A DNA stretch of 64,000 nucleotides from a virus (taxonomy: Duplodnaviria; Heunggongvirae; Uroviricota; Caudoviricetes). The notes beneath the pieces were generated by a model. That model made no database searches and was not told where the DNA came from. It saw only the letters and a program-made list of their open reading frames with translations. The position numbers and the translations under genes are program-made. The DNA lies in the IMG/VR virus record IMGVR_UViG_3300024268_000012; one strand, 5' to 3'. Every line of letters begins with the position of its first letter. The stretch's first letter is position 1. Below, in pieces: positions 24,335 to 26,653 of this stretch.

Positions 24335-25039
24335 ATGAAAGTATGGACAACATTACTTGGTACAGATGATTATTTAGAAGCGGTTTTAACTTTAGAGGAA
24401 AGTCGTAAAAGAGTAGCTTCTAAATATCCGCTGGTAGTTATTTGTTTTAATGATTTAGATTATAACACATATGAATCTTTAGATCAGGCAAACATTAAAT
24501 ATGAAACTTTCCCAAGAGAGTTGTTTCAAGGAGAGAAACGAAACAAAGATTATTCTGTGACTATAGGCAAATTTTACGCTTATGTTCTAAAAAACGTTTC
24601 TCGTTTTTGTTTTATTGATGCAGATTCATTTTTTGTAGAAAACATAGATTATATATTAGATATATCAGTACCTGTTTTCTTCGTGTTTGATCCATCATTT
24701 AGAAATGGCTATACAGAAAATATGAACTGTTTAACAGGATGTATTTTTTCTGACAATACATCACAAGAAAAATTTGATTGTGCATTTACATATAAAGAAC
24801 AATGCCGCGAAGATGAACAGGTGCTACCAATCTTGGCAGATAAGAGTAAATCTCATATGAGAATTTGTTATCGTGATTGGACATTGCGTCATCAAATGGT
24901 GGTATTTCACGAAAGTGCATATTCAACTGCTCATAAATTTTGGAATCGACCTAATTATGACAGACATGCTTTTCTAAATGAAGTAATTTATTTTTTTAAA
25001 CATGATTGGTCTTATATTAAGTCGATACCTGAAGAATAA
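24335..25039 (+). CDS. Glycosyltransferase family 8 (glycogenin-like) protein
   Basis: 234 aa. The N-terminal DYLEAVLTLEES..YPLVVI region and the FIDADS DxD-type motif are present. Its paralog at 25910-26653 shows clearer GT8/glycogenin blocks. Confidence 0.5.
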   Translation: MKVWTTLLGTDDYLEAVLTLEESRKRVASKYPLVVICFNDLDYNTYESLDQANIKYETFPRELFQGEKRNKDYSVTIGKFYAYVLKNVSRFCFIDADSFFVENIDYILDISVPVFFVFDPSFRNGYTENMNCLTGCIFSDNTSQEKFDCAFTYKEQCREDEQVLPILADKSKSHMRICYRDWTLRHQMVVFHESAYSTAHKFWNRPNYDRHAFLNEVIYFFKHDWSYIKSIPEE

Positions 25040-25043
25040 ATTT

Positions 25044-25170
25044 AGGCACACACAGCAATTCTTCTTTAAGAAGAGTGTGGGTTCAAATCCCACAGAATGC
25101 GCAAAAGCAGCATTTTTGGCGGAATGGTTTACGCGATTGACTGAAAATCAATTTTCTTTATAATGTGCCT
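25044..25170 (+). ncRNA. ACAGCAA-box element (copy ii) enclosing tRNA-like arms in permuted order; Y-RNA-like candidate
   Basis: Closing stem AGGCACA...TGTGCCT encloses ACAGCAATT, a T-arm-like GTGGGTTCAAATCCCAC and an anticodon-arm-like GATTGACTGAAAATCAATT. Confidence 0.35.
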
Positions 25171-25176
25171 AGTCTT

Positions 25177-25250
25177 AGGGGTTTACGATAATGGTAGTCT
25201 AGCGGTCTCCAAAACCGTAAGTGGTGGTTCAAATCCATCAACCCCTGCCA
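25177..25250 (+). tRNA. tRNA-Trp(CCA)
   Basis: Acceptor AGGGGTT pairs with AACCCCT, stem-loop CGGT-CTCCAAA-ACCG, T-arm GGTGGTTCAAATCCATC, followed by G and CCA. Confidence 0.7.
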
Positions 25251-25253
25251 TAT

Positions 25254-25328
25254 TGGCGATTGGTGTAATTGGCAACACGCCGGACTCTGACTCCGTTGTT
25301 CTAGGTTCAAGTCCTAGATCGCCAGCCA
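25254..25328 (+). tRNA. tRNA-Gln(CTG)
   Basis: Acceptor TGGCGAT pairs with ATCGCCA, loop CTCTGAC, T-arm CTAGGTTCAAGTCCTAG, followed by G and CCA. Confidence 0.7.
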
Positions 25329-25339
25329 AGAGGTATATT

Positions 25340-25636
25340 ATGCAGGACGACAAGATTTTAGAATGGATTCACCGCAGATTCCCCCATGATAGTAATTGGT
25401 TAAATGGTAATTGCTATCAATTTGCTCTCCTGCTCAATTCTACTTTTGAGGGAGAGATTGTATATGACCCAATTGATGGACATTTCCTTTTTCTTGCGAG
25501 CAACGGTCAGTTTTATGACTGGTCTGGTGTGCGGATATACAGTGGGACTTATCAAAAGGCATTTGTCAAGTGGGCTGACTACCGACAGAAAGATCAACTC
25601 CACTATGATCGGGTGATGCGAGACTGTGCGTATTAA
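25340..25636 (+). CDS. Hypothetical protein (98 aa)
   Basis: RBS AAGAGGT and an ATG just after tRNA-Gln. The track ORF 25163-25636 runs through tRNA genes, so its upstream part is not coding. Confidence 0.45.
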   Translation: MQDDKILEWIHRRFPHDSNWLNGNCYQFALLLNSTFEGEIVYDPIDGHFLFLASNGQFYDWSGVRIYSGTYQKAFVKWADYRQKDQLHYDRVMRDCAY

Positions 25637-25727
25637 ACCTCGATTATGTCAGCATGGTTGCCGACGATGCTTTTGGCTGCGGAAAATCACTCGTCCCGGT
25701 CGGAAATATTGGGCATGTACATATTGA

Positions 25728-25802
25728 CCCCTCGTAGTCTAACGGAGAAAACAAGGGCCTTCTAAGCCTTACTTCTGGGTTCGATTCCTAGCGGGGGGAC
25801 CA
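25728..25802 (+). tRNA. tRNA-Arg(TCT)
   Basis: Acceptor CCCCTCG pairs with CGGGGGG, stem-loop AGGGC-CTTCTAA-GCCTT, T-arm CTGGGTTCGATTCCTAG, followed by A and CCA. Confidence 0.6.
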
Positions 25803-25803
25803 T

Positions 25804-25879
25804 GGTTCCTTAGCCAAGCTGGTAAGGCGGCGGATTGCAAATCCGTTATTCACTGGTTCGAGTCCAGTAGGAACCTCCA
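25804..25879 (+). tRNA. tRNA-Cys(GCA)
   Basis: Acceptor GGTTCCT pairs with AGGAACC, stem-loop GCGGA-TTGCAAA-TCCGT, T-arm CTGGTTCGAGTCCAG, followed by T and CCA. Confidence 0.75.
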
Positions 25880-25909
25880 TATTTATTTTGAGAAAAAGGT
25901 GGGATATAC

Positions 25910-26653
25910 ATGAGTCAAAATTCTCTTGATCCATCTCGTTTTGCTTATGTTACATTATTAAGCTCTGAAGATTATTTAGATGCAGTTTTAGTATTGCATG
26001 AAAGCCTGAAAGATGTGCAGGCTAAATTTCCTTTAATATGTGGAGTTACTAAAAATTTAAATTCCACACAACTTATCACAAAATTGATGAATTCTGGTAT
26101 TCATATTGAATGGATTGAACCTTTGGAATATAGTGCTGGGACACAAGCAAAATATCCAGGAAAGGTAGTATTAAATACTGCATCCAAGGTTAATTTGTTT
26201 AATTTAGTAAATTATGATAAACTTTGTTACATTGACGCTGATACGATTGTCGTCAACAATATTGATGATGTATTCGATCGGCTGGATGGTTCAATGGTAA
26301 AGTTCCAGAATGATGATTATGGTTTTACTGGACTATTTGTATTTAGCCCTCGTAATCATCGAGCAGATTTTTATTTGCATCTATTGAAGAATTTTGATTG
26401 TTTTGACGGTGATCTAATTGGTTCTTTATGGTTCCACACTCGTACAAGTGCAGATCACTGGATTAGTGATGACTATTGCAAACATTATAATAACGATGTA
26501 AAACGCAAAGGTAATCATAACGTCCGTGTTTGGCATTTCTGCAATGAGGGTTGTAAACCTTGGAAACCTGCAGATCGAGAAAACATGAAACCCACTTATG
26601 TGCTTCAAAAGTACGATGATCTTTTGGCTCGCGTTCATGGTATGTTTGATTGA
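25910..26653 (+). CDS. Glycosyltransferase family 8 (glycogenin-like), paralog of 24335-25039
   Basis: 247 aa. YVTLLSSEDYLDAVLVLHESL, CYIDADTIVVNNIDDVFDR (DxD), FDGDLIGSLW and HFCNEGCKPW parallel the glycogenin blocks. RBS AAAAGGTGGG. Confidence 0.6.
   Translation: MSQNSLDPSRFAYVTLLSSEDYLDAVLVLHESLKDVQAKFPLICGVTKNLNSTQLITKLMNSGIHIEWIEPLEYSAGTQAKYPGKVVLNTASKVNLFNLVNYDKLCYIDADTIVVNNIDDVFDRLDGSMVKFQNDDYGFTGLFVFSPRNHRADFYLHLLKNFDCFDGDLIGSLWFHTRTSADHWISDDYCKHYNNDVKRKGNHNVRVWHFCNEGCKPWKPADRENMKPTYVLQKYDDLLARVHGMFD

Follow-up and report, generated by a model that had tools for sequence, protein, structure and literature searches.

Glycogenin (GYG1/GYG2) belongs to CAZy glycosyltransferase family 8 (GT8), as do the LgtC/WaaJ-type enzymes and GlyD/GlyE, with which it shares a retaining mechanism and the DxD motif. 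GlyE, a streptococcal adhesin glycosyltransferase, exemplifies enzymes that glycosylate a protein in the cytoplasm one sugar after another. Gat1, the α-galactosyltransferase of the Skp1 glycan (PDB 6mw5), is likewise cytoplasmic and extends a glycan on a hydroxylated protein residue, following a hydroxylate-then-glycosylate logic. The T4 α- and β-glucosyltransferases (GT72/GT63) and the base-J glucosyltransferase are phage and parasite enzymes that glycosylate a hydroxylated DNA base. Virus-encoded glycogenin paralogs comprise Mimivirus R707, which presumably assembles chains of glucose on the glycans of virion fibres, and the 'p13-like' GT8 proteins of giant viruses. R707 binds uridine diphosphate (UDP)-Glc with Mn2+ but does not glucosylate itself, even though a Tyr is present (PMC9614988). 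Here, we describe two open reading frames (ORFs) in a 64,000-nucleotide stretch of viral DNA (Caudoviricetes; IMG/VR record IMGVR_UViG_3300024268_000012; hereafter the window) that almost certainly encode GT8 glycosyltransferases:

24335..25039, + strand: ORF1, a diverged GT8 paralog, glycogenin/Gat1-like GT-A glycosyltransferase, 234 aa, ATG start
25910..26653, + strand: ORF2, a glycogenin-like GT8 glycosyltransferase, 247 aa, ATG start

A preliminary description of this DNA had given the coordinates of both ORFs exactly, and the motifs quoted there are present in the proteins, i.e., AYVTLLSSEDYLDAVLVLHESL and YIDADTIVVNNIDDVFDRL in ORF2, and VWTTLLGTDDYLEAVLTLEESR and FIDADSFFVENIDYILD in ORF1. 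Its assignment of both to glycogenin-like GT8 enzymes with a DxD motif is backed by Pfam, by PDB sequence searches, by AlphaFold models and by Foldseek. ORF2 scored 26.6 bits against Pfam PF01501 (Glyco_transf_8), for which the gathering cut-off is 24.3, and as a single sequence it matched glycogenin-2 in the PDB at 6.3e-14 (human glycogenin-2 and glycogenin-1, 6e-14 to 1e-12) and Gat1 at 6.5e-8. A profile of 31 ORF2-type homologs reached glycogenin-2 at 9.7e-27 over positions 2-214, which is near full length. With the AlphaFold2 model of ORF2 (predicted local distance difference test score, pLDDT, 91.7; predicted template-modelling score, pTM, 0.90), Foldseek placed glycogenin nearest at a template-modelling (TM) score of 0.75-0.82, followed by Gat1 (0.72), and then by UGGT and LgtC (0.62).

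ORF1 alone gave no Pfam match and a best E value of 0.14 in the PDB sequence search. The profile of its 8-member family matched Gat1 at 8.8e-13 and glycogenin-1 at 9e-11 over residues 2-114, and its AlphaFold2 model (pLDDT 87.9) returned glycogenin first (E 4e-13, TM 0.65-0.70), then Gat1 and GlyE. The top Foldseek matches of both models were all GT8 GT-A structures. Of the two relatives named in the preliminary description, glycogenin stands, whereas LgtC (TM 0.62 at 14% identity) is much more distant than glycogenin or Gat1; GlyE lies at TM 0.57. PHROGs contained no match for either ORF, NCBIfam only a far sub-threshold one (22 bits vs 250), and PADLOC, covering anti-phage defence and counter-defence, only one with an E value of 0.003 for ORF1.

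By alignment, the residues that bind the donor sugar and the metal in glycogenin (the DxD motif, the Mn-binding His and two UDP-binding Lys) are kept in both ORFs. The DxD motif, D109-A-D111 in ORF2 and D95-A-D97 in ORF1, is invariant within the respective families of 31 ORF2-type and 8 ORF1-type homologs. The Lys matching GYG1 K86 is K93 in ORF2 (31/31) and the invariant K79 in ORF1, while the Mn-ligand His of the HF/FH motif (GYG1 H212) is H209 in ORF2 (29/31) and the near-invariant H192 in ORF1. The Lys matching GYG1 K218 is K216 in ORF2 (31/31, within an invariant K216-P217-W218) and the invariant K201 in the KFW of ORF1; for ORF2, all equivalences were taken from the profile alignment to 3t7m. 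The FDGxD loop of glycogenin is conserved as well, appearing in ORF2 as a near-invariant FDGD loop (D166-G-D168), and the EDEQ loop of ORF1 resembles glycogenin GDQ. Because this catalytic inventory is conserved, and hydrophobic segments and signal peptides are absent from both proteins (maximum Kyte-Doolittle score over 19 residues 1.2-1.45), ORF1 and ORF2, each a single-domain protein, are very probably active, soluble, retaining glycosyltransferases that depend on a UDP-sugar and Mn2+. Each would transfer an α-linked hexose from the UDP-sugar with retention.

The proposed paralogy of the two genes was borne out by BLASTP, in which ORF1 and ORF2 share 39/112 identities (35%) at an E value of 7e-14, far beyond chance. 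This likeness is confined to the N-terminal 112 residues, the donor-binding half, and the C-terminal halves are not alignable by BLAST. ORF1 is an old, diverged paralog of ORF2, and the two are real genes, anciently diverged members of a phage-restricted glycogenin/Gat1-like GT8 clade. Donor binding is a task of the N-terminal half in GT-A enzymes, and acceptor binding one of the C-terminal half; conserved N-terminal and diverged C-terminal halves therefore fit two acceptor specificities. The earlier suggestion of two specificities or sequential sugar additions agrees with this pattern, which fits it without demonstrating it. The enzymes may thus serve different cytoplasmic acceptors, or successive positions on one acceptor.

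Glycogenin is the best match in both sequence and structure, with the same GT-A fold and a catalytic domain of similar size. However, its identity to the phage ORFs is only 21-25%, the phage genes lie in a tRNA island, and ORF2, with DGDL, lacks the Gln of the DQ motif. Glycogenin proper was rejected as a candidate on two counts. In the alignment, the position of Tyr195, the residue that GYG1 glucosylates on itself, is occupied by V197 in ORF2, and the family varies or has a gap there; the conserved Y189 of ORF2 aligns with Tyr187 of the glycogenin LPFIY motif, and Y193 is conserved nearby (27/31). The C-terminal synthase-binding region is also missing, as the proteins stop ~30 residues past KPW/KFW, at 234 and 247 aa.

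A related role, in which the phage enzymes would prime an α-glucan on themselves for the UDP-glucose-dependent GT3 glycogen synthase of the host (e.g., in Bacteroidota) and so redirect carbon, appears extremely unlikely. It draws on glycogenin being the closest structure and on the loop past Y189, which is Tyr-rich in the family and includes Y193, and Bacteroidota do have GT3 glycogen synthases, with no bacterial glycogenin known (PMC11046441). Self-priming is opposed, however, by the unconserved Tyr195 position and the missing synthase-binding tail, and by Mimivirus R707, which has the Tyr and yet shows no self-glucosylation (PMC9614988). Homologs also occur in TGA-recoded phages, the hosts of which are assumed to be different, and the Shine-Dalgarno-like and sigma-70-like signals of the window (see below) argue against a Bacteroidota host.

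Gat1 is the best PDB match of the ORF1 family profile and reaches TM 0.68-0.72 to both models, but at 15-18% identity; its pathway is eukaryotic, depends on O2 and has glycosyltransferases dedicated to the preceding steps, and the phage ORFs have no known Skp1-like acceptor. In the BFVD database, the nearest viral structures were giant-virus GT8 and p13-like proteins (TM 0.68-0.75), among them a mimivirus p13-like protein, and phage entries were distant. R707 and the other giant-virus proteins differ from the phage pair in belonging to viruses of eukaryotes, in their ~19% identity and in their genomic context.

Among 50,697 GenBank phage records, megablast and tblastn detected no relative of ORF1 or ORF2, nor did ORF2-family patterns detect one in 185,579 species genomes, a scan within whose reach low-identity cellular relatives do not fall. 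Metagenomic data yielded 31 ORF2-type and 8 ORF1-type clusters, and at least 168 clusters with a joint profile, nearly all of 230-270 aa and many on contigs of 110-240 kb. The two proteins are new members of a known enzyme family, in an uncharacterised clade virtually restricted to metagenomic contigs, many of which are large and phage-like. A protein identical to ORF1 is encoded on a contig of 173,816 bp. The closest relative, locus L001 (loci are given L numbers throughout), shows 72% and 57% identity, and the whole arrangement is syntenic, including both paralogs. Both types are also present in L002, and pairs recur in L006 (in tandem), in L011 and in L005 (ORF2-like at 10001-10777, ORF1-like at 16607-17335).

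Several GT8 homologs contain in-frame recoded stops (four TAG in L004, several in L006, TGA in L011 and L013) and would therefore be translated only once suppression is active, a stage that published models of recoded phages place in the late phase. On the TGA-recoded contigs (L011 1459-8807; L013 9953-10681), GT8 is present as two or three paralogs whose reading frames contain numerous TGA codons, also at the Trp of KPW. In L013, the GT8 gene comes after a lysis cassette, an HSP20 gene and a suppressor tRNA (TCA).

As the best explanation overall, to which we give nearly an even chance, the GT8 pair would carry out the sugar-transfer step(s) within a covalent modification of several steps, with a peptide or protein as the likeliest acceptor. 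This is suggested by the company of the genes in related phages, i.e., radical S-adenosylmethionine (SAM)/SPASM, GT2 and YcaO proteins, or a U32-like protein. The former set is organized as a cassette in the order p255, radical-SAM enzyme A, radical-SAM enzyme B with a C-terminal Cys-rich SPASM-like region, GT2, YcaO and GT8, versions of which were found in L005, L007, L008, L074, L064 (on the same contig as L006), L003, L033, L029 and L028. The cassette spans 1517-10777 in L005, 490-5902 in L007, 2223-12916 in L003 and 5968-10080 in L033, often with YcaO and small ORFs included and with GT8 as its last gene or beside it, and its two radical-SAM enzymes are paralogous, ~460 aa each. L003 has three GT2 genes, L029 has YcaO followed by GT8, L028 has GT2, GT8, p296 (a gene also present in the window, see below) and a suppressor, and L033 has GT8 and radical-SAM enzymes A and B adjoining a DnaB helicase gene. 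The cassette resembles a gene cluster for protein maturation or for peptides that are made by ribosomes and modified after translation (RiPPs). GT8 homologs are repeatedly paired or duplicated (L005, L006, L011) and repeatedly found near macromolecule-modifying enzymes.

That the acceptor is a peptide or protein, of phage or host, we put somewhat below an even chance. It is favored because the nearest structures (glycogenin, Gat1 and GlyE) glycosylate proteins or protein-linked glycans in the cytoplasm, because SPASM-type radical-SAM, YcaO and PqqD-type domains are hallmarks of peptide maturation, because the recoded stops in homologs imply expression once suppression is on, and because the window shows nothing suggesting DNA hypermodification. 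The preliminary description had suggested modified DNA bases, host proteins or surface polysaccharide precursors as possible targets; the context in related phages (radical SAM/SPASM, YcaO, GT2, and a homolog of a neighbouring gene fused to a RiPP recognition element) leans towards peptide or protein.

Two genes of the window are tentative partners of the GT8 pair:

32240..33130, + strand: p296, a divergent peptidase-U32-family protein of 296 aa, classified by Pfam matches of its homologs; tentative pathway partner
18377..18634, + strand: AroQ-type chorismate mutase, which makes prephenate, matching PDB chorismate mutases at 6.5e-7; tentatively linked via p296

The p296 protein of the window itself has no direct match in Pfam, PHROG or the PDB, the last searched with the single sequence and with a profile. 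Its family comprises 941 cluster representatives with a near-invariant set of Glu, Cys, Cys, His and Cys, and 16/53 sampled members match Pfam Peptidase_U32 (best 5.2e-6). One homolog carries an N-terminal PqqD domain, and PqqD-type domains are peptide-recognition elements in RiPP biosynthesis. Homologs of p296 lie 0-9 kb from GT8 in L001, L102, L104, L028, L005 (two copies), L010 and L013, and in 0/67 suppressor-tRNA loci without an adjacent GT8. The chorismate mutase homolog of L001 has Pfam CM_2, and the gene lies ~1.1 kb upstream of GT8 in L026 and L027, reflecting conserved island order. In the window, a CitMHS-family transporter gene overlaps and precedes the chorismate mutase gene (17034-18634), and L001 and L027 keep this pair at the left end of their tRNA island.

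A number of points weigh against the proposed peptide or protein modification. A tblastn search found no radical-SAM, GT2 or YcaO gene in the window, and the cassette argument therefore amounts to guilt by association from homologs of 30-50% identity. The L033 cassette lies beside a DnaB helicase, which fits a DNA-related role equally well, and the U32-like partner together with chorismate mutase points to nucleic-acid hydroxylation rather than to peptides. The GT8 call for ORF1 comes from its family profile and its own model only, the C-terminal half of which was modelled with lower confidence (pLDDT ~54 around residues 121-130). Finally, the window covers 64 kb of a genome of ~174 kb, and genes for DNA hypermodification could lie elsewhere.

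Peptidase_U32 is the family of the O2-independent hydroxylases TrhP, RlhA and UbiU/V. TrhP and RlhA are needed for the prephenate-dependent, O2-independent C5-hydroxylation of U34 in tRNA (ho5U34) and of C2501 in 23S rRNA (ho5C2501), respectively (PMC6599085, PMC5727448). On this precedent, p296 might hydroxylate a pyrimidine at C5 in tRNA or rRNA with prephenate supplied by the phage chorismate mutase, and the GT8s might glycosylate the hydroxyl, altering decoding or shielding the phage tRNAs from host anticodon nucleases. The location of the GT8 genes within a tRNA array beside RNA-repair genes, the co-occurrence of p296 and GT8 in at least 7 loci, the U32 matches within the p296 family and the presence of a real chorismate mutase gene all speak for such an RNA modification. 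We nonetheless consider it decidedly unlikely. The U32 relationship is weak, given that p296 of the window lacks a Pfam match and that its Cys spacing differs, and the p296 family is far larger than the GT8 family, so that p296 mostly works without GT8. The co-location of p296 and GT8 in the clade is largely inherited synteny, one p296 homolog has the peptide-binding PqqD domain, and we know of no glycosylated ho5U or ho5C.

A broader variant has the GT8 pair as the sugar arm of an O2-independent modify-then-glycosylate pathway of anaerobic gut phages, acting on nucleic acid (DNA, or tRNA including the amber suppressor) or on a translation factor. The prephenate-dependent, U32-like p296, or a radical-SAM/YcaO set elsewhere, would create the acceptor group, which the GT8s would then cap with a hexose. 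This variant rates as decidedly improbable as well.

Glycosylation of DNA bases, one of the targets proposed earlier, received no support within the 64-kb window and is in our judgment unlikely. The sugar would be placed on a hydroxylated or hydroxymethylated pyrimidine of the phage DNA, blocking restriction or CRISPR, and p296 might supply the hydroxyl anaerobically, using prephenate that the phage chorismate mutase provides. Hydroxylation followed by glycosylation is precedented in T-even phages and in base J, p296 and chorismate mutase are encoded in the same island, the GT8-radical-SAM cassette of L033 adjoins DnaB, and the C1-folate proteins of the window (FolD, formate-tetrahydrofolate ligase (FTHFS) and a formate transporter) could feed hydroxymethyl-pyrimidine synthesis. 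However, no dCMP or dUMP hydroxymethylase and no TET/JBP enzyme was present among the window ORFs scanned. The T4 α- and β-glucosyltransferases have a GT-B fold, whereas the fold of the ORFs is GT-A; a T-even-type DNA glucosyltransferase (GT63/GT72) was rejected as an identity for the ORFs on this ground and for want of a dCMP hydroxymethylase among the ORFs scanned. In addition, the in-frame recoded stops in homologs suggest late rather than replication-phase expression, and the presence of YcaO, of SPASM-type radical-SAM enzymes and of the PqqD fusion speaks for chemistry on peptides.

Lipopolysaccharide or lipooligosaccharide is the substrate of most bacterial GT8 enzymes that have been characterised. 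The phage enzymes could accordingly remodel the host envelope in the manner of WaaI/J and LgtC, adding α-Glc or α-Gal to a lipid-linked glycan at the inner face of the membrane and thereby excluding other phages. L003, with its cluster of three GT2 genes and a GT8 gene, would suit such a role, and envelope-type proposals exist for jumbo and gut phages (PMC7824862, PMC8008677). Yet LgtC reaches only TM 0.62 as compared to 0.75-0.82 on the glycogenin/Gat1 side, ORF1 and ORF2 have no segment for membrane association, no sugar-nucleotide or polysaccharide export genes lie nearby, and the genes are embedded in an island of translation and RNA-repair functions, all of which makes envelope remodelling quite unlikely.

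The GT8 pair was said to bracket a tRNA block, which held true: four tRNA genes and a YunG-like ORF lie between ORF1 and ORF2, and around the pair extends a much larger array, comprising 33 tRNA genes (ARAGORN), all on the + strand, at 16850-33744. The genes between the paralogs, and those following ORF2, are:

25177-25250, + strand: tRNA-Trp (ARAGORN, Rfam)
25254-25328, + strand: tRNA-Gln(ctg) (ARAGORN, Rfam)
25346-25636, + strand: YunG-like ORF, 96 aa (Pfam PF24591)
25728-25802, + strand: tRNA-Arg(tct) (ARAGORN, Rfam)
25804-25879, + strand: tRNA-Cys (ARAGORN, Rfam)
26718..26808, + strand: amber-suppressor tRNA, anticodon CTA, 91 nt, 64 nt downstream of the ORF2 stop (ARAGORN, Rfam)
27312..27626, + strand: cREC_REC-domain gene (Pfam PF20274, 1.1e-19)
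28446..29201, + strand: ThiF/E1-like gene with an in-frame TAG at 28623-28625 (Pfam PF00899)

The order of the block between the paralogs (25177..25879) is the same in L001, L002, L024 and L102. Between an ORF2-type gene and the amber suppressor downstream of it there are 25-100 nt in L001, L002, L024, L026, L031, L032, L102 and L104, with homologs down to ~38% identity, and 0.5-1 kb in L103 and L028. The order GT8, suppressor, cREC, ThiF is kept in L001, L102, L103, L104, L026 and L031, and the tRNAs past the suppressor vary between lineages. In the TGA-recoded contigs L011 and L013-15, a suppressor tRNA (TCA), the sole tRNA in the 20-kb locus, lies 18-24 nt upstream of GT8.

The reverse test used 67 IMG/VR loci matching the long-arm suppressor pattern (L035-L101), 62 of which were confirmed by ARAGORN as CTA tRNAs, often in tandem with a second CTA tRNA of 73-78 nt. 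None of these long-arm suppressor loci had an adjacent GT8, and two had one ~5 kb away; several relatives within the clade keep suppressor and cREC without any GT8. An obligatory coupling of GT8 and suppressor was therefore rejected. Because of the reverse test and the suppressor-cREC loci devoid of GT8, the adjacency amounts to synteny conserved among the lineages that bear GT8, to which TGA phages add one or two independent events, and is not a requirement of recoding.

These data also bear on a take-over of translation, in which a GT8 would glycosylate a host factor (e.g., RF1, or RF2 in TGA phages) so that the suppressor prevails at the reassigned stop. Translation factors are known targets of glucosylating GT-A toxins, e.g., Legionella Lgt, and the tight spacing of GT8 and suppressor, kept to ~38% identity while the tRNAs beyond differ, and found again in the TGA contigs, would be in line with such a role. 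It is nonetheless very unlikely, as the 62 confirmed long-arm suppressor loci lack an adjacent GT8, relatives keep suppressor-cREC alone, the suppressor lies kilobases off or outside the locus in the GT8-bearing L003, L004, L006 and L007, and translation of the GT8s of TGA phages itself depends on suppression.

TAG appears to be read as Gln in this phage, because none of the confident ORFs ends in TAG, in-frame TAGs occur at Gln positions and the CTA tRNA is Gln-like. The stop codons of 33 confident ORFs are 20 TAA, 13 TGA and 0 TAG. The GIY-YIG nuclease ORF at 62674-63645 contains 5 in-frame TAG, one of them in the motif YVG*A at a position that is Gln in the canonical GIY-YIG motif. The TAG of the L104 ThiF homolog aligns with the Gln of a conserved SQPA motif; the single TAG of the window ThiF gene, read through according to the alignment with the L001, L103 and L104 homologs, aligns with Leu in three homologs. 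The suppressor tRNA has a Gln-like acceptor stem and D-arm (A1xC72 mismatch, G2-C71, G3-C70, G73) and an unusual variable arm of ~21 nt. TAG recoding was also flagged at 6788-7789. Neither ORF1 nor ORF2 contains a TAG.

Among 38 ORFs with a mean GC content of 41.9% (standard deviation 5.0), ORF1 is the lowest at 30.5% and ORF2 the third-lowest at 34.4%, and this low GC fits mobile accessory cargo. The island of tRNA and RNA-repair genes that carries ORF1 and ORF2 as AT-rich accessory cargo belongs to a clade of 110-240 kb TAG->Gln phages. The tRNA array further contains two paralogous PDDEXK_5 endonuclease genes (20942-21373 and 31022-31465), one with 30.6% GC and thus AT-rich like ORF1; homologs in the tRNA arrays of L004, L007 and L103 suggest mobile, homing-type elements. 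At 31606-31670, a partial tRNA-like Rfam match (45.9 bits, model positions 5-66) without an ARAGORN call may be a degraded or unusual tRNA.

A strong Shine-Dalgarno-like AAGGTGG (25895-25901) lies 8 nt before the ORF2 ATG. Near-consensus sigma-70-type promoter matches (10-11 of 12) at 25137-25164, 26650-26678 and 27251-27279 immediately precede tRNA-Trp, the suppressor tRNA and the cREC gene; the second, TTGATT-17-TATAAT, overlaps the ORF2 stop just before the suppressor and suggests that the suppressor tRNA may have its own promoter. The scan for sigma-70 promoters and terminators showed no significant enrichment over shuffles and is used as a hint only. Since Shine-Dalgarno-like and sigma-70-type signals are not typical of Bacteroidota, a Firmicute-like bacterium may be the host.

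Elsewhere, the window, which comes from a large phage-like genome, encodes GyrB, GyrA, DNA ligase, RNase H and SAM synthetase. The one-carbon folate genes (FolD, a formate/nitrite-family transporter and FTHFS) are located at 347-1180, 10673-11266 (- strand) and 53020-54681. An RNA-repair-like block at 35934-50091 comprises DUF2828/DUF7788, an RlaP nucleotidyltransferase, three calcineurin-like phosphoesterases, an HNH nuclease, a YqeY-domain protein, an RNA ligase, a PNK-like AAA_33 kinase and an 823-aa homolog of the major vault protein (38026-40497). Very long antisense ORF pairs are present at 8238-10037 (-)/8373-10064 (+), 4002-5267/4395-5228 (-) and 44071-45468 (-)/44128-45570 (+); in the longest, 599 aa lie opposite 563 aa, and both ORFs of 8238-10037/8373-10064 are without a Pfam match.

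The basic GT8 annotation is ordinary, the family being well known; what is unusual is the conserved genomic setting in a large gut-type phage. In the literature, we found no description of a phage glycogenin or GT8, of recoding together with a glycosyltransferase, or of a phage system of radical-SAM, YcaO and glycosyltransferase genes, nor of the GT8-suppressor-cREC-ThiF order, the radical-SAM-GT2-YcaO cassette or the context of a U32-like protein with chorismate mutase. The clade is sizeable, with at least 168 clusters and none characterised, and its GT8s mark conserved gene sets in TAG- and TGA-recoding phages, i.e., the GT8-suppressor-cREC-ThiF order and the cassette of two radical-SAM enzymes, GT2, YcaO and GT8. 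If the acceptor is a virion or host protein, this would be a new type of phage protein glycosylation, and if it is a nucleic acid, a new modification chemistry for anaerobes. Should the O2-independent modify-then-glycosylate pathway prove true, it would constitute an anaerobic analogue of base J or of the glucosylation of hydroxymethylcytosine in T4, possibly tied to stop-codon recoding.

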